Source of the DNA: a virus
Taxonomy: Duplodnaviria > Heunggongvirae > Uroviricota > Caudoviricetes
Virus record (IMG/VR): IMGVR_UViG_2622736468_000007
Strand: one strand, 5' to 3'
DNA: 28,446 bases
A program made the position numbers and the translations under genes. Below the pieces are notes generated by a model. The model was given only the letters and a program-made list of their open reading frames with translations. It had not been told where the DNA came from and did not search any database. Below, in pieces: positions 1,302-10,402 of this stretch (the first letter of the stretch is position 1; each line of letters opens with the position of its first letter).

Positions 1302-1877
1302 CTACGGCAGTGCTGGCCATTCAATATCCTGTGAAGTTGACGTATCAACACGGTTCAGCAATACCCGATACTTTTTCCATGCTTCCAGCAACGAGATTTC
1401 TTCCTCCGTTGCAATTTCCAGATCTGCAGCATCCTGAAGCGGCGCAATATGCTCACTGGCTACCTGCATCAGGTTGTTTTTTGTTTCTTCCGCCTCCCGG
1501 ATCCGGAACAGTTTTTCTGCTTCCGTATCCTTCACCCAGGCTGTGCCGTTCCACTTCTGAAACTCCCCTTCCGGCGATAACCAGGTAACATTTTCCGGTA
1601 ACGGACCGAGTTCAGAAATAAATAACGCGTCGCCGGAAGCCACGTCATAAACCGTTTTACCCCGATGATCTTCAACGAGATGCCACGATGACTCATCACT
1701 GTTGAAAACAGCCACGAAGCCTGCCGGAATATCTGGCGGTGCAATATCGGTACTGTTTGCTGGCAGACCTGTATGAGGCGGAATATATGCATCACCTTCA
1801 CCAATAAATTCATTAGTTCCGGCCAGCAGATTATAAATTTTTATGGTCCGTGGTTGTTCACTCATTCTGAATGCCAT
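1302..1877 (-). CDS. tfa: tail fibre assembly protein (Tfa)
   Basis: 191 aa; lambdoid Tfa-like sequence; its ATG overlaps the stop of the upstream stf remnant (TAATG). Confidence 0.85.
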
Positions 1878-1879
1878 TA

Positions 1880-2132
1880 TGCAAGCCTCACAATATAGTT
1901 AAATGCGATGTTTTTGACGGTGTTTTCCGCGTTACCAGCAGCGTTAACGGTGATGGTGTGTCCATGTGAACCAATCGCAACGGAGTGCGTATGTCATCCC
2001 TTTCAGGTGAATGATATTTCCATACGCTGTTGGATATCCGTTGTTATACACCTCGTATAACTCAAGACCTGTTGCCCCCTGCGTATTGTCTGTCAGCGCG
2101 GTTAACCGGGGCAAATGATGAGTATCGTCCTG
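1880..2132 (-). pseudogene. side tail fibre (stf) 3' remnant with internal deletion and stop
   Basis: Minus-strand translation gives tail-fibre C-terminal peptides (...[22 protein letters not shown]... and ...[28 protein letters not shown]) separated by an in-frame stop; no 5' portion present. Confidence 0.55.
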
Positions 2133-2876
2133 TTAACCTGCGGCGCTGACAGCCACCGTAGCCACTGCCACAAAATCGCCGTCAGCGGTCATGCCCACAA
2201 TGCTGACACTGCCCTGCTTCACGCCTTTTACCGTGGCCACAAGTCCGTTCAGGGTAACCGTGGCAGTCTGTGGATCTGACGAATGCACACTGATCGCTTT
2301 GTCACTGGCTCCGTCAGGTTTTACTGTAAAGGTCAGCGTGGTGGTTGCTCCCACTTTTACACTGGCAGATGCCGGTGATACTGTCAGCCCGGTAACGCTC
2401 ACGGTTTCAGTGCCTTCCTCTGCCAGATACGGACGCCCCACACCGCTGATTTTCACAGTGCGGGTCATCACGTCTTTTGAGGCAATGGTTTTACCCAGTG
2501 AGCTCAGCCAGCCACGGAAAACATCAACAGTGCCGTTGGGATATTTGATACGAAACGCGCAGACTTCACCGGAGTCGAACAACTGAACCAGTTTTTTCTG
2601 CCCGCTGTCACCCGGACGCCAGGCCAGCGTCGCCGAAGTATCACCAACGGATTTCTGCCCCTGGGTTGTCGTTTTCCAGTCTGCATCTTCATCATCGAGA
2701 TAAGTGTCATCTTCTGCATCAGCGGTCATTTCGCCAGGTTGCAGATCCTTCACCATCGCAAGACGCAGCCAGTCAGTGTCCGACAAAGGGTTCGCAAACG
2801 CATCGCCGTTGCCGGTATACATCCAGAACGTCGTCCCCGCACCTTTCGTCTTTGCCAGTGGATTTGGTGTAGTCAT
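2133..2876 (-). CDS. major tail protein, lambda gpV-like with C-terminal Ig-like domain
   Basis: ORF 2133..2951; likely start at internal ATG (2876) preceded by TAAGGAGGTGGTA; MTTPNPLAKTKGAGTTFWMYTGNGDAFANPLSD... matches the remembered lambda V N-terminus and C-terminal Ig-like repeat region. Confidence 0.85.
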   Translation of the reverse strand: MTTPNPLAKTKGAGTTFWMYTGNGDAFANPLSDTDWLRLAMVKDLQPGEMTADAEDDTYLDDEDADWKTTTQGQKSVGDTSATLAWRPGDSGQKKLVQLFDSGEVCAFRIKYPNGTVDVFRGWLSSLGKTIASKDVMTRTVKISGVGRPYLAEEGTETVSVTGLTVSPASASVKVGATTTLTFTVKPDGASDKAISVHSSDPQTATVTLNGLVATVKGVKQGSVSIVGMTADGDFVAVATVAVSAAG

Positions 2877-2975
2877 TACCACCTCCTTAATTCGTGTACG
2901 TGATCTGGTACGTGATTTCCGCCATCGCCCAGGTGGCCATCTCATTATCACGTTGATAGTTAAAACCGAGTGGGA

Positions 2976-3200
2976 TCAGGGTGTCGATGAGTCCGGAAAG
3001 TGCCGGTACCCGGGATGCCCCCGTCGTCGTGTAATCAGAGCCGCAAGGCGGCGCTCCCACTCCTGCCGTCCCTGCCGGATCTCAGATAAGTTTTCCATGG
3101 TCATCTGCTGACCATTAAAGGTGACGGATTTTCCGTCCAGCACCGCCATTTCAGCTTCCGTATAACGCTGAATCATGGCTTCGATATCATTCTGGTTCAT
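2976..3200 (-). CDS. gpW-like head-tail joining protein (small, directly after terminase)
   Basis: 74-76 aa ORF whose ATG overlaps the terminase stop (ATGA) with GGAGG just upstream; position and size match lambda W; C-terminal RRRG motif. Confidence 0.45.
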   Translation of the reverse strand: MNQNDIEAMIQRYTEAEMAVLDGKSVTFNGQQMTMENLSEIRQGRQEWERRLAALITRRRGHPGYRHFPDSSTP

Positions 3201-5298
3201 AACCATCCTCCGGAAGTCAGCCAGGGGTTAACATCGTCAGTTACTGTTTTCTTCCGTTTTTGTTTTTTAACAGGCGTGGATACCGGTTCCGGTGTGGGTG
3301 ACGGTTCGGTACTGTCCGGGACACACTCCAGCCAGGTTTCCCGGCTCGCCCACTCCGGTGCATCCGGCCAGCGGATCTTTTCGTATCCATGCAGAATGAC
3401 CAGAGCCTCGGCATACACCATCAGGTCAAAAGCTTCGTTGGCACCGCGACCCGGCTTACTCCATTTCCCGTCACTGCTCCGCTCTTCATACGTCAGTTCG
3501 TCGTAAAACCAGCTCCCCAGCCAGTCAGGGAAATGCACATAGCCGGGACCTGGCGAGTCACGCCATAACGCGTTATTCACCCGGTCTTTCAGGGCATCCG
3601 TCTGAAGAAGCCAGAGCGGTACATCACCTGCGGCCTGCGCCCGTCGGCCCGTTCGTCCGGTGTTATCAGGGAATGTACGGGTGATCAGTTTTGCGCGCCG
3701 GATGCTGTCGCCCTTAAACAGGTAAATACGTTTACCAAGGCCATCACGACGGCAACGACGCCAGAATTTATAGGCATTATCAGTGACTCCGTCTTCACCG
3801 CCGGAGTCCACCGCCATTGCCATCAGTCGCATTTGTTGAGAAGGATCGGAGGCCAGCGGCCAGCTTTTATGAAAAACATCCGTCAGCAGGACATCCCAGT
3901 CTTCCGGATAGCTGGCCGGATCAATTCGCTGGCTCTCCCCGTCGCTGTCACCGCGCAATGACTGCGTGATGTTGTAACGATCAATAATCCAGCGTTCGCC
4001 ACGGCTGCCATAGCCCGTTACCTGAACCACAAAACGGCGATGACGTCCCGCCTGCACATCAACTGTCGCCACCAGGAAATTAACGCCATCCGGCACACTG
4101 CGGGAAGGAACTGGCTCTGCCCGCTGCTCAAGCAGTTCACTTTTTCGTTGCTCCATGCTGGCACGGGGAAGATAAGGTAATCCCCAGTCGGTATTGATAA
4201 CCGTCTTGAGTGTTTCTTCACTTCCGGTTGTCTCGTATTCCTGTTCTGCAGCAAGCAGTTTGTAAACGAGTTGCGAGAGTGTCTGGTAAGCAGCTGCCGG
4301 ACCCTCCATCCAGAATGACGCAATACGTGAGCGTCGGGGATCACCATAACGACTGCCATCCGCATTGATGGATTCACCATCCCGCAACCAGACCCCACGT
4401 CCGTTCAGCTCACGTTTTTGTTCAGGCATAATCCGTCCTGAACAGGAAGGACACTGAATATAAGCCGCCTCACTTGCCAGCACGGGATCGGCAATATCAC
4501 GGAAACCAGCAACCACATCGCCGCAGGGCTGAAAATACTCACCACAGTGTGGACAGGGCCAGTACCAGCGACGGCGATCGCCACGGTTATAGAGCGACAG
4601 TATCCCCGTGGTTGGTGGAGCCTCATGCGGTGAAGTCCGTCGCCATTTCACATCCTTCACATCCCTGCCGGGGAACTCTCCACCAGCGTCATACCACTGG
4701 ACATAAATGTGGTGGTACGTTTTGAGGCAAGAGAGAAGGCATCCTCCTCGCCATCAATATCTTCCGGAAAACGGTCATAATCCGTCAGCGCCACGCATTT
4801 ATAATCTGATGAGGACATGATATTGACTGACGGCCAGCCGATTTTCAGGTAGTTGCCAGCAAGGAATGTTCTGTCATAAACGTTGTTGTCATTTTTGTTC
4901 GGACTCAGGCGACTGACCACTTCCGGGCTGACGCGAAACGTTCTGGCAAGTCGTTTTTTGGAGTGTTCGCGGGCTTTTTCCTCCGTCATCTGAATGATCA
5001 GCATATCAGCAGGATCGCAAATCACGTTGTAAATCACCCAGCCGTCAATCAGGCCGATAGTCTTGCCAGTTCGTGCCGGGCCAACAAATATCACTGCGTC
5101 GTATTCACGCGAGGCCAGGCAGTTCATCGGCTCAATAACATACGGTGCCACCAGCGGATCCCACGGGACTGAGTTCCCGGCCCCCATGGGCACCCGCATA
5201 TACTGAGCAACGGCATCAGCAACCCGCATTCGTCTCGGTGCGCGAAGGATATAACCTGAATCGGTTCGTGCTGCCTTTGCGGTTTCCTGATTCAGCAT
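3197..5298 (-). pseudogene. terminase large subunit (GpA family) split into two frames (4657..5298 N-terminal ATPase part; 3197..4660 C-terminal part)
   Basis: N-terminal ORF carries Walker A (VIFVGPARTGKT); C-terminal ORF carries CPHCGEYF zinc-finger-like motif and nuclease region; frames change near 4657-4662, where the second ORF only has a GTG start overlapping the first ORF's TGA. Confidence 0.75.
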
Positions 5299-5300
5299 TA

Positions 5301-5468
5301 CTCCTCCTGCTGTAATTCCTCCTCATCATCCGCACCTGCTTCGGTCACCCGCAGGGCTATCTGATCGCGCAGATCATCAATAATGGACTGAACACGGCTC
5401 ACAGCGGCAGGCTGCAGGCCGCAGTCACGTTCCAGAATATCCGGTAATGTCTCCAGCACCTGCACGAC
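5301..5468 (-). pseudogene. terminase small subunit (Nu1-like), C-terminal part separated by IS insertion
   Basis: 56 in-frame codons ending ...DDEEELQQEE* with TAA overlapping the large-terminase ATG (TAATG); in frame with the N-terminal part across the IS629 insertion. Confidence 0.6.
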
Positions 5469-5510
5469 TGAACCGCCCCGGGTTTCCTGGAGAGTGTTTT
5501 ATCTGTGAAC

Positions 5511-6401
5511 TCAGGCTGCCGGATCATCGTTTCCGATGGAAGCATAATAAGCTTTTTCTGCTTCTGCCGGAGGAGTATGGCCCAGCCTTTCCAGCAATCG
5601 TCGATTGTTATACCAGTCCACCCACGTGAGTGTGGCCAGCTCCACTTCTGTCCGGTTTTTCCAGCTCTTACGGTGTATTACCTCCGCTTTGTAAAGACCA
5701 TTGATGCTCTCCGCCATCGCGTTGTCATACGAGTCGCCTGTACTTCCTGTTGATGCCAGTAATCCGGCTTCCTTAAGCCGCTGTGTGTAGGCCAGCGATA
5801 CATACTGAGAACCTTTATCACTGTGATGGACCGTGCCGGACGGTCGACGGGCCCATAACGCCTGCTCCAGTGCATCCAGCACGAATGTCGTTTCCATGGA
5901 CGATGAGACCCGCCACCCCACGATGTATCCGGCAAACACATCAATGATGAACGCCACATAGACGAAGCCCTGCCATGTGCTGACGTAAGTAAAATCAGCC
6001 ACCCACAGCTGGTCAGGTCGTTCTGCCACGAACTGACGGTTTACGCGGTCGCCTGCGGCAACGGCTTTCCGGCTGATGGTCGTACGGACCTTTTTACCCC
6101 GGAGAACACCGGCAAGTCCCATAACCGCCATGAGACGTGCCACAGTGCATCTGGCCACTCTGATACCTTCCCGTAACAACTGACGCCAGACTTTACGCAC
6201 ACCGTATACCTTGTGATTTTCATCGTATACGCGCTGTATCTCTTTCTTCAGCCAGTCATCGCGCTGCGCACGGGCACTGCGTTTATCCGGATGATGTCGC
6301 TGTTGCTGACAGTGGTAATACGTTGACGGGGCAATATGCAGTTCGCTGCATAGCGGTCCGACCCCGTACTGCTCACGCAGCTTATCCAGCAGTGGCATCA
6401 T
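5511..6401 (-). CDS. IS3-family transposase OrfB (DDE catalytic domain)
   Basis: 296 aa; typical IS3-family integrase-core sequence. Confidence 0.9.
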
Positions 6402-6724
6402 TTTTTCCAGAGGCGGTCGAACTCCGCCTTCGCAAAATAAGCGGAAGCCTGGCGAAGGATATCGTTACTGCGGCGCAGTTCACGATTTTCACGCTCCAGC
6501 TCTTTCAGACGCTGACGTTCAGCGGTGGTGAGCCCTCCATCACCGCCCCCGGTATCCCGCTCATGCTGGCGAACCCAGACACGCAGAGTCTCCGGCGTAC
6601 AGCCAATCTTTGGAGCAATGGAACAAATTGTCGCCCATTGTGAGTCATATTCGCTCTGACTTTCCAGAACCATACGGACTGCCCGTTGACGGACTTCGGG
6701 GGAAAAACGAGTATTTTTAGTCAT
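6398..6724 (-). CDS. IS3-family transposase OrfA (HTH, leucine zipper)
   Basis: 108 aa [19 protein letters not shown]...; overlaps orfB start as expected for frameshift-fused OrfAB. Confidence 0.9.
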
Positions 6725-6778
6725 CCTGTTTACCTCTTTCTCAGGAAGTTTAGTCTCCAGGATTCCCGGGGCGGTTCA

Positions 6779-7103
6779 CGACCGCTTTTGCCCAGATGGC
6801 AAACTCCCGTCTGACATCACTGGCCGGAATGAGTTGTGCCGTTTCCTGTTCGAACTTAAGACGCTCACGTTCAGACTGATACCAGGCTTTGCGTTCATGT
6901 GGATCCATTTCGCCCTCAGCAACCGGCGGTGGTAACCCCATAAATTCAGTCAGAATATCGGTCAACCGGTATAGCTTGAGTTTGTCATGTCCACCAGCGG
7001 GACGAATGTTTTTCAGTCTTGCCACGACAGTCTGGCGGTGCAGACCAGATAAAGCCGCCAGTTGATTAATATTCAGCACCAGGTTTTTCAACTCATGATC
7101 CAT
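6779..7103 (-). pseudogene. terminase small subunit (Nu1-like), N-terminal part interrupted by IS629-like element
   Basis: ORF 6750..7103 MDHELKNLVLNINQLAALSGLHRQTVVARLKNIRPAGG... (winged-HTH like Nu1); the last 8-9 codons are read-through into the IS end. Confidence 0.7.
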
Positions 7104-7470: not shown

Positions 7471-8052
7471 GTAAGCGTACAGCCTGAACCGTCTGGTCAG
7501 AATCTGACGAATTAGACAAAGTGGTGTCCACCAAATAAGCAGTGGGAACCAAAGTATCAGATATGCAGAAAAATGTGACTCCCGGCAGGCGAAAAGGCTG
7601 CCCTAATTATCCTCCCGAATTTAAACAGCAGCTCGTTGCTGCCTCCTGTGAACCCGGGATATCCATCTCAAAACTTGCTCTTGAAAATGGCATTAACGCC
7701 AATCTGTTGTTCAAATGGCGACAACAATGGCGCGAGGGAAAGCTGCTATTACCTTCTTCAGAGAGCCCCCAGCTACTTCCTGTGACTCTCGATGCAGCTG
7801 CCGAACAGCCAGAATCGCTCGCAGAGGACCCGGAAACCCTCAGTATCAGCTGTGAGGTAACGTTCCGGCACGGGACGCTCCGCTTCAATGGCAATGTCAG
7901 CGAAAAGCTCCTGACTCTGCTGATACAGGAACTGAAGCGATGATCCCGTTACCTTCCGGGACCAAAATTTGGCTGGTTGCCGGTATCACCGATATGAGAA
8001 ATGGCTTCAACGGCCTGGCTGCGAAAGTACAAACGGCGCTGAAAGACGATCC
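7471..8052 (+). repeat. 582-bp inverted duplicate of the orfA-proximal end of the IS66-family element (partner 9913..10494)
   Basis: Sequence 7471-8052 is the reverse complement of 9913-10494 (orfA proteins identical except one residue, E/K). Confidence 0.85.
7563..7943 (+). CDS. IS66-family OrfA (TnpA accessory protein), partial-copy duplicate
   Basis: ORF 7542..7943 (GTG) with likely ATG at 7563; MQKNVTPGRRKGCPNYPPEFKQQL... Confidence 0.8.
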   Translation: MQKNVTPGRRKGCPNYPPEFKQQLVAASCEPGISISKLALENGINANLLFKWRQQWREGKLLLPSSESPQLLPVTLDAAAEQPESLAEDPETLSISCEVTFRHGTLRFNGNVSEKLLTLLIQELKR

Positions 8053-8056
8053 GTAA
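7940..8056 (+). pseudogene. IS66-family tnpB truncated after codon 38 at the junction with the inverted complete copy
   Basis: [38 protein letters not shown] ; the stop is supplied by the GTAAGCG terminal repeat of the adjacent copy. Confidence 0.8.
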
Positions 8057-8089
8057 GCGTGCAGCAAGAACCGTATTGACGGGGATGTG

Positions 8090-9628
8090 TTATTCAGTCG
8101 GCAGTGCTACGCGCCAGGGGAGCAGTTCGCCGACCCGGTTTATCGGCCAGTCGGCTATGACGTCAAGGACATAGCGGAGGTAGCTTTCTGGCTCCACTCC
8201 GTTCAGTTTGCACGTCCCGATCAGGCTGTACAGCAGCGCTCCCCGCTCTCCTCCATGATCCGAACCGAAGAACAGGTAGTTTTTGCGGCCCAGACTGACC
8301 ATCCGCAACGCATTTTCAGCGATGTTATTGTCCGCCTCAGCCCAGCCATCATCTGCATAGTACGTCAGCGCCGGCCACTGGTTCAGGGCGTATGCGAACG
8401 CTTTCGCCAGTTCTGAGTGTCGCGACAGGGTTTTCATCTTTTCACGCAGCCAGCTTTCCAGGGATTTCAGCAGCGGTTTCGTTTTCAACTGACGTTCGGC
8501 AAGGCGCTGTTCCGCCGTCATTCCCCTTATCTCTGCCTCGATGGCGTACAGTTCGCCGATCCGTTTCAGCGCTTCCTCCGTCAGGGCTGACGGGGTGCGA
8601 ACGTGCACATCGTGGATTTTACGGCGGGCGTGAGCCCAACAGGCGGCTTCCGTTATCCGGCCATCCCGGTACAGCTCGTTGAACCCGGCGTATGCATCCG
8701 CCTGCAGTACACCACTGAACCCCGCAAGATGGGTCTGCGGATGGATGCCTTTTCTGTCCGGGCTGTAAGCGAACCACACCGCCGGCGCCAGCGTTGACCC
8801 GGCGTTACGGTCGTCACGAACATACGCCCACAACCGCCCGGTCTTCGTTTTCTTATTGCCTGGCAACAGCACCGGGACAGGCGTGTCATCAACATGGAGC
8901 TTACCGTCAGTCAGCACATAGCCATGAAGCGCCTCTTCCAGCGGAGACAGCAGCCGGCAGCATGCATCCACCCAGCCCGACAGCAGTGAACGGCTCAGCT
9001 CCACACCTTGCCGGCCGTATATTTCTGACTGGCGATACAGCGGGGTGTGCTCTGCATACTTCGAGGTCAGCACGCGGGCCAGCAGCCCCGGTCCGGCGAT
9101 ACCCCGCTCGATGGGCCGCGAAGGTGCAGGTGCCTGCACGATGGCATCGCACTGAGTACAGGCATGTTTTTCCCGTACCGTCCGGATAACCCGGAAGGCG
9201 CTACGCATCAACTCCAGCTGTTCGGCGGTATCCTCGCCCAGATAACTCAGTGAACCGCCGCAGTTCGGGCAGCACGGCGCCGCAGGCAACAGTCGCTTTT
9301 CGTCACGGGGTAGTGATTCAGGGAACGGCTTACGGGTGCGGGTCTGACGCAACGGACGCTGTACTGCCGGGTCATACACCCTACCAGTCAGCGTATCGCT
9401 CTCTTTCTGAAGCCGGTTCAGATCGGCTTCCATTTGTGCGATACGGCGGGAGACTTTTTCGGAACGACTGCCGAAGTTCATCCGGCGGAGTTTATCCAGC
9501 TGCGCCTGCAGATGGTCTATTTCGCGCTCCCGGTTGCTCAGCTTTTCCTGCAGGGCGTGGATCAGCGCTTCCTGTTCGGCCAGGCGCTGTTTCAGCAGGA
9601 AGATGTCGTCAGAAGAGATGTCGTTCAT
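8090..9628 (-). CDS. IS66-family transposase (TnpC, DDE)
   Basis: 512 aa; leucine-zipper N-terminus, CxxC zinc motif, DDE core typical of IS66 transposases. Confidence 0.9.
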
Positions 9629-9677
9629 AAGCCCGTATTTTACCGGGCTTATTCTGTGACAACCAGGATAAAGAGAT

Positions 9678-10025
9678 TTACAGCATGGTCAGGGAGGTCA
9701 GCAGCCGCTTAGGCTGTCGCCAGTCGATACCTTCCAGCAGCATCGCCAGCTGCGCCTGTGTAAGGAACACTTTGCCATCACGGGCTGACGGCCAGGCGAA
9801 GCGCCCACGCTCCAGCCGTTTGGTCAGGAGGCACAGTCCGTCACCGGTGGACCACAGCAGTTTAACCTGACTGCCGCTGCGGCCCCGGAAAATGAAAACA
9901 TGGCCGGACATGGGATCGTCTTTCAGCGCCGTCTGTACTTTCGCAGCCAGGCCGTTGAAGCCATTTCTCATATCGGTGATACCGGCAACCAGCCAAATTT
10001 TGGTCCCGGAAGGTAACGGGATCAT
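9678..10025 (-). CDS. IS66-family TnpB
   Basis: 115 aa [31 protein letters not shown]...; ATGA overlap with orfA. Confidence 0.9.
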
Positions 10026-10402
10026 CGCTTCAGTTCCTGTATCAGCAGAGTCAGGAGCTTTTCGCTGACATTGCCATTGAAGCGGAGCGTCCCGTGCCGG
10101 AACGTTACCTCACAGCTGATACTGAGGGTTTTCGGGTCCTCTGCGAGCGATTCTGGCTGTTCGGCAGCTGCATCGAGAGTCACAGGAAGTAGCTGGGGGC
10201 TCTCTGAAGAAGGTAATAGCAGCTTTCCCTCGCGCCATTGTTGTCGCCATTTGAACAACAGATTGGCGTTAATGCCATTTTCAAGAGCAAGTTTTGAGAT
10301 GGATATCCCGGGTTCACAGGAGGCAGCAACGAGCTGCTGTTTAAATTCGGGAGGATAATTAGGGCAGCCTTTTCGCCTGCCGGGAGTCACATTTTTCTGC
10401 AT
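10022..10402 (-). CDS. IS66-family OrfA (TnpA)
   Basis: ORF 10022..10423 (GTG start); likely ATG start 21 nt in. Confidence 0.85.
   Translation of the reverse strand: MQKNVTPGRRKGCPNYPPEFKQQLVAASCEPGISISKLALENGINANLLFKWRQQWREGKLLLPSSESPQLLPVTLDAAAEQPESLAEDPKTLSISCEVTFRHGTLRFNGNVSEKLLTLLIQELKR

Follow-up and report, generated by a model that had tools for sequence, protein, structure and literature searches.

Resident prophages commonly lose morphogenesis genes, and RecA-independent, short-homology illegitimate deletions between direct repeats occur in E. coli. The closest named system to the element described here is Qin of E. coli K-12 (ydfK-pinQ-tfaQ-stfQ-nohA ... cspI-rzpQ-rrrQ-essQ-cspB-cspF-ydfT), a lambdoid prophage that has likewise lost its morphogenesis genes by deletion. 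Its late/lysis/cold-shock and stf-tfa-pin-ydfK modules are 91–94% identical to those of our window, by which we mean the whole 28,446-nucleotide stretch of DNA that was analyzed. Qin differs in lying at ydfJ rather than prfC and in carrying a lambda Nu1-type small terminase remnant, nohA, where the window has a DUF1441 gene. In Qin a single junction has also taken away everything between the nohA end and stf, setting nohA against stfQ and leaving no TerL, W or V, whereas the element studied here keeps TerL, an altered W (W'), a remnant of U (U') and V. The prophages of E. coli strains 2013C-3033 and 4/1-1 share its yjjG/prfC site as well as its integrase, regulatory, lysis and terminase genes, and they are 99.8–99.9% identical to it in the flanks of the deletion. 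They differ in retaining a 5,045-bp head/connector block and a 13-kb tail block, and they are free of the three insertion sequences that it holds at these positions.

The window is 100% identical over 13.2 kb to CP014197.1, the chromosome of E. coli MRE600 (PMC4825418, PMC12851939). The element that it covers is integrated between yjjG and prfC, has a Qin-type lysis/cold-shock/tail-fibre module and, from the integrase beside yjjG to ydfK-dinI-prfC, is collinear with the prophage of 2013C-3033. Because of this collinearity we regard it as the same-site prophage in a decayed state, and we conclude that the window represents the late and early parts of a defective lambdoid prophage in MRE600. At one end stand ydfK (1–234) and a gene for a Pin-type serine recombinase (614–1204), both on the plus strand. 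According to the ORF listing and translations, the genes from 1302 to about 21900, beginning with tfa (1302–1877), run on the minus strand. Further along are the genes for Rz, lysozyme, an IS1, holin, cspB/cspF, Q and DUF968, and also a KilA-N/Rha-like gene, RusA, a CII-like gene, an S24 repressor and a P4-type integrase. An AT-rich stretch adjoining the integrase, in which 2013C-3033 has different cargo, holds an ORF of 339 aa with an N-terminal DUF4365 domain (25932–26951), possibly a defence-type gene. An Rfam match above the gathering score, IS009, lies inside tfa (1336–1534), and Rfam cspA-type thermoregulator leaders lie at 11977–12407 (cspI-like) and 16200–16639 (cspB).

The preliminary description took positions 2877–2975 as a deletion junction at which a W-like gene abuts the major tail gene. 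The spacing that it gave agrees with the coordinates. On the minus strand, where all the genes around the W-like ORF and V lie, the W-like ORF stops at 2976–2978 and the V homologue starts with an ATG at 2874–2876, leaving a gap of 99 bp with no portal, capsid or head-tail genes in between. The placement of the junction was wrong. When aligned by blastn to the same-site prophage locus of 2013C-3033 (L001), which retains the deleted region, window 2099–3009 is collinear with V and the 3' end of U (L001 12001–12911, 99.78% identity), and window 3002–5468 is collinear with W and the terminase (L001 17949–20416, 99.88%). Because these two blocks overlap at 3002–3009, the 99-bp stretch is a remnant of U followed by the native U–V spacer. 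The true site lies 27–34 nt beyond it, within the W-like ORF, so the earlier placement was off by about 30–130 nt. In relatives, the annotation under window 2099–3009 reads "phage tail protein" and "phage minor tail U family protein," and that under 3002–3700 reads "terminase large subunit" and "hypothetical protein."

A three-way alignment places the junction (3002–3009, no strand) at a microhomology of exactly 8 bp, GCCGGTAC, that is shared by the two blocks, with no filler DNA. This octamer occurs twice in L001 (12904–12911 and 17949–17956) and once in the window. Compared with relatives that retain the region, whose flanks are 99.7–99.9% identical, the missing segment is exactly 5,045 bp, and the coordinates of three independent relatives (2013C-3033, FHI_NMBU_10 and JNEC-KY171) give this same 5,045-bp spacing. 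An 8-bp microhomology is far above chance expectation, as at least 8 bp were found in just 2e-4 of 400,000 random breakpoint pairs from the 2013C-3033 late region. The synteny comparison with relatives bears out the earlier claim that a lambdoid late operon has genuinely lost its portal, capsid and head-tail genes by deletion. At the W–U junction we found no Rfam family and no newly made promoter or terminator above shuffled expectation.

The deletion altered both genes that it touched. The W and U ORFs are complete in relatives, and both are truncated mid-ORF in the window relative to hundreds of complete copies. The W-like ORF (2976–3200, minus strand) now encodes a chimera of 74 aa, in which residues 1–66 are those of the intact 70-aa protein and the final eight (HFPDSSTP) are U read out of frame. 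Its C-terminus has thus changed from LARF* to HFPDSSTP*, with the intact protein ending ...GHPGYRLARF* and the window version ...GHPGYRHFPDSSTP*. In relatives, the W-like gene sits between TerL and the portal gene. The protein matches PHROG 118, head-tail adaptor (3.9e-35), and in Pfam its sole match at E ≤ 0.01, to DUF6148, scores 20.2 bits, below the cutoff of 27; the profile comparison does not place it in the Pfam gpW (head-stabilising) family. Because it matches PHROG 118 but has no Pfam gpW match, "W-like" describes position and annotated role and not demonstrated membership of the gpW family.

On the other side of the junction, the tail-terminator gene U has lost its first 93 codons (the first 70%). 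The relatives' annotation and translation identify a 3' remnant of its last 40 codons and stop (2887–3009, minus strand), of which 2887–2975 (89 nt) represents codons 104–133 and the stop. The remnant is non-functional because no start codon is left. The intact U of the relative is a Pfam Phage_tail_U protein (5e-61). Between this remnant and V lies the native 10-nt intergenic spacer (2877–2886, minus strand), which holds V's Shine-Dalgarno sequence, AAGGAGGTGGTAATG. The V homologue itself, a major tail tube protein of 247 aa (2133–2876, minus strand), is intact. It consists of a full-length Phage_TTP_12 domain (1.2e-66, positions 1–135 of 135) and a C-terminal Ig-like Big_2 domain (1.1e-12), as expected of a gpV-type protein, and it matches PHROG 41, major tail protein (1e-123). 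It has no amino acid differences from the V of 2013C-3033 (100% identical), and its own ribosome-binding site is retained. That so perfectly conserved a V was kept could in principle reflect selection and not accident, a distinction for which 2 nt differences in 911 nt have no power.

We propose that one illegitimate, short-homology deletion joined two copies of GCCGGTAC that lay 5,045 bp apart, one of them 7 nt ahead of the W-like gene's stop and the other inside U. A single copy would have been kept, and W would have been fused in the same event to eight out-of-frame codons. The perfect 8-bp direct repeat, with one copy kept, no filler and no mobile-element end, makes this the signature of short-homology illegitimate recombination. 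Deletions of this kind in E. coli show the same features, with perfect short direct repeats at the two ends, one copy kept, no filler and kilobase-scale spacing. Breakpoints, microhomology and lost genes can be read directly, and the same junction stands in two assemblies; the ancestral undeleted state is that suggested by the relatives. Replication slippage, or RecA-independent recombination at short homologies by breaking and annealing, is the most likely pathway. We are highly confident that a single short-homology deletion between the two octamers explains the W–U junction.

The W–U junction appears to be confined to one strain. An exact look-up of the chimeric 74-aa protein returned two assemblies only, CP014197.1 and GCA_901482365.1. 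A megablast search with window 2000–3400 covered the whole query in none of 5,426 complete E. coli genomes, and thousands of E. coli genomes match this query in two separate places. Because the junction is absent from those 5,426 genomes, from GTDB species representatives (searched with a 36-mer and a 23-mer) and from metagenome contigs, the deletion looks private to MRE600.

Could an insertion sequence or a site-specific recombinase have removed the segment instead? The prophage offers candidates for both, since it holds three insertion sequences and the Pin gene, and the neighboring V–stf junction does appear to be site-anchored. However, 3002–3009 contains no IS, IS end or scar, the perfect 8-bp repeat is typical of short-homology illegitimate recombination, and there is no sign of recurrence, the searches having found the chimeric protein and junction in no other genome. 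The insertion sequences also retain their target duplications. The first, an IS3-family element of 1,310 bp with orfA/orfB and an ALIL frameshift pseudoknot (5469–6778, minus strand), which we take to be IS629/IS1203-like, is flanked by a CGAC duplication. An IS66-family block of 3,024 bp upstream of the small terminase gene (7471–10494) has an 8-bp duplication, GGAAAATA, and an IS1 of 768 bp between the holin and lysozyme genes (14292–15059) has a 9-bp duplication, CTCATCCCC. Because these duplications are intact, the three are simple insertions and not deletion endpoints, which argues against IS-mediated adjacent deletion. Within the IS66-family block, 582 bp of the orfA end also recur in inverted orientation (7471–8052 and 9913–10494, 99.3% identical), and the element therefore has an internal inverted partial duplication. 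Taken together, these points make excision of the W–U segment by an IS or a recombinase highly improbable.

An assembler might also have collapsed an intact morphogenesis module, and the deposited MRE600 assembly does have sequencing errors. Relative to CP014197.1, GCA_901482365.1 shows three single-base homopolymer indels over 20 kb, and from these differences the two assemblies appear to be independent. One of them, C4 versus C5 near 4674 (about 4670–4674), splits the large terminase gene, which encodes a gpA ATPase and nuclease (3197–5298, minus strand), into two ORFs in the window. Because the gene is intact in the second assembly, at 700 aa, the split is probably a sequencing error. Another, C3 versus C4 at about 12068, truncates cspI and is probably an error in CP014197.1 as well, both errors being of a kind expected of PacBio-era sequence. 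Despite these other homopolymer calls, GCA_901482365.1 has the identical W–U junction with the same neighbors. The MRE600 genome was assembled from PacBio reads of a 20-kb library at 184x (PMC4825418), both flanks of the junction are unique sequence, and its repeat is too short, at 8 bp, to cause a collapse. With the junction common to two separately made assemblies and a repeat of just 8 bp, we consider a collapse very unlikely indeed, and on this point the preliminary description, which had named assembly error as the alternative, was sound. Finally, lambdoid prophages are mosaic, and the tail-fibre end is about 93% identical to 2013C-3033 against 99.8% for the late genes, but the idea that nothing was deleted, and that the arrangement is the natural order of another element (a satellite or a tail-only element) or a hybrid joint between two prophages, is scarcely credible given that W and U are cut mid-ORF relative to hundreds of complete copies, that both flanks match a single prophage of strain 2013C-3033 which occupies the same chromosomal site, and that the element is collinear with that prophage from integrase to ydfK.

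The short-homology deletion removed the last four codons of W, the portal gene, a gene for a ClpP-protease/capsid fusion, a decoration gene, an FII-like gene, Z and the first 70% of U. When the genes of the relative were scanned against Pfam and PHROG, the portal protein was identified as Phage_portal_2, the next two products as a fusion of a ClpP-like prohead protease with the major capsid protein and a cement/decoration protein, the connector as Gifsy-2/FII-like, and Z, a Z-like tail completion gene, as Minor_tail_Z. The lost module had been described in lambda order, as portal, protease/scaffold, capsid, FI/FII, Z and U. The late operon is indeed lambdoid, but its head genes are of the ClpP-protease/major-capsid-fusion type, with no separate C/Nu3/D/E or FI.

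In lambda morphogenesis, no heads or joined tails form without the portal, protease/capsid, connector and terminator genes. The element has the gene content of a cryptic lambdoid prophage, in which integrase, S24 repressor, CII-like gene, Q, holin and lysozyme are present and morphogenesis genes are absent. The loss of portal, capsid, connector and tail genes relative to 2013C-3033 upholds the earlier view of a defective prophage, and judging from its gene content it would be incapable of building capsids or particles. The accompanying statement that the prophage keeps its lysis, terminase and regulatory genes is only partly right, because IS insertions interrupt the first two of these modules. 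The IS3-family element splits the small terminase gene (DUF1441) into fragments at 5298–5468 and 6779–7103 (minus strand), and the IS1, lying between the holin (15295–15510) and lysozyme (13107–13640) genes, probably uncouples the lysis cassette. Two deletions and three IS insertions together would make this a dead prophage.

The second of these deletions was absent from the preliminary description. Its junction is a TA at 2103–2104 (no strand), where the loop of a hairpin downstream of V is joined to a point within stf, the side tail fibre gene. The deletion starts 30 nt after the V stop, and in comparison with the 2013C-3033 prophage about 13.2 kb is gone, including G, T, H, M, L, K, I, J, lom and most of stf. 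The stf remnant (1877–2104, minus strand) consists of two pieces, 1994–2104 and 1877–1993, that meet out of frame at 1992–1993, where 728 nt present in K-12 stfQ have been deleted internally at a 2-nt microhomology, TG. Because V is flanked by deletions on its W–U and stf sides, it is an orphan, and its survival, ribosome-binding site included, would be due only to the chance that the two deletions stopped on either side of it.

The stf end of the second deletion recurs in other prophages. At 2104 the remnant ends in ...GCGCGGTTA, exactly as K-12 stfQ does before nohA, and Qin's truncated stfQ begins at exactly the same TA. The stf remnant of GPEC1054 ends at this point too and is followed by a truncated ClpP/MCP gene. 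Copies of the anchor lie at 2103–2104 in the window, 5840–5841 in locus L007, 4110–4111 in L011 and 20110–20111 in L008. Across IMG/VR, metagenomes, K-12 Qin, GPEC1054 and MRE600, the sequence ...TGTCAGCGCGG(T/C)TA has about 15 different partners, drawn from the late genes upstream. We scanned public collections with a 24-mer just inside the stf boundary. In IMG/VR, 13 of 100 sites were junctions immediately after (T/C)TA, and these had at least 11 partners that differed from one another; among 73 sites in metagenome contigs there were 15 junctions, which added two or three partner types. The partners include lambda-type Nu1, A, C and E, portal, ClpP/MCP, the V-downstream hairpin, tape measure and gpK-like genes. 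All those that could be mapped are upstream late genes in direct orientation, which corresponds to deletions of roughly 5–20 kb. TA stands at the crossover in all six partners for which undeleted sequence was recovered, and the partner flanks are enriched for TAACC(G).

As a control, the reciprocal side of the anchor gave one junction in 108 occurrences. A related natural stf allele that lacks the TA gave none in 22, a difference that is not significant (p about 0.08). The V-downstream hairpin is not equally hot, with only one junction in 119 occurrences. In GPEC87-32-644, whose Qin prophage lies at ydfJ, the same TA in the hairpin loop is joined to a different, more 5' position in stf (L003 6770–6775); this junction also crosses at TA, and its undeleted partner reads ...GCGGCAC-TA-CTGGCGC. 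At the anchor itself, a hairpin would have a stem of only 3 bp (CGG-TTAC-CCG, z = -1.0 to -1.9).

Fixed-end deletions have a precedent in lambda, in which Int-promoted deletions of the b region are anchored at attP, with one endpoint fixed to the nucleotide and many partner sites. The stf anchor at 2103–2104, and of our two junctions this one only, resembles them in its fixed end and many partners. Unlike attP, it has no recognizable recombinase site. The anchor, GCGCGGT-TA-CCCGACC, lacks the dyad ...AAACC-NN-GGTTT... of a Gin/Hin/Pin crossover site. Experimentally used PinQ sites are TTCTCCCAAACCAA, with core AA (PMC12529663), and the anchor bears no resemblance to these pix sites. We found no copy of it within three mismatches on either strand in L010, where stf-tfa-pin is uninterrupted, no inverted partner near pin and, at the far end of the retained block, no terminal inverted repeat like that of a transposon. 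Upstream of pin there are a half-match to a Gin/Hin-type crossover site (AAACC-GA-G...) and a palindrome, ATTTTTGGT-TAC-ACCAAAAT (429–455, 470–497), which could be what is left of an invertible-segment site. Searching the literature for earlier accounts of a deletion hot spot in stf turned up nothing relevant. We tentatively suggest, at somewhat less than even confidence, that the orphan V is bounded at 2103–2104 by a nucleotide-precise, previously undescribed deletion hot spot in stf of Qin/Rac-type prophages. Our best guess at its mechanism is a sequence-specific nick or break, or strand exchange with a 2-bp core. The W–U deletion is not part of this class.

MRE600 is a widely used laboratory strain and the standard source of ribosomes and tRNA, and in practical terms this prophage is predicted to be unable to form particles. 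We conclude that the W–U deletion is real, ordinary, strain-private prophage decay, and that the preliminary interpretation was broadly correct apart from the points above. Because its junction is found nowhere else and the MRE600 genome paper is silent on phage (neither "prophage" nor "phage" occurs in its main text; PMC4825418), it is a new instance of a well-known kind, a base-resolution record of one further inactivation route for a lambdoid prophage that by itself has little weight. The stf anchor could carry more. If it reflects a sequence-specific break or a 2-bp-core strand exchange, Qin/Rac-type prophages would have a dedicated way of shedding tail and head modules while keeping the fibre tip, tfa, pin and ydfK, with the nohA–stfQ junction of K-12 as one product. 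A single TA in stf appears to be the fixed end of many independent large deletions, which hints at a specific mechanism in the decay of cryptic prophages.
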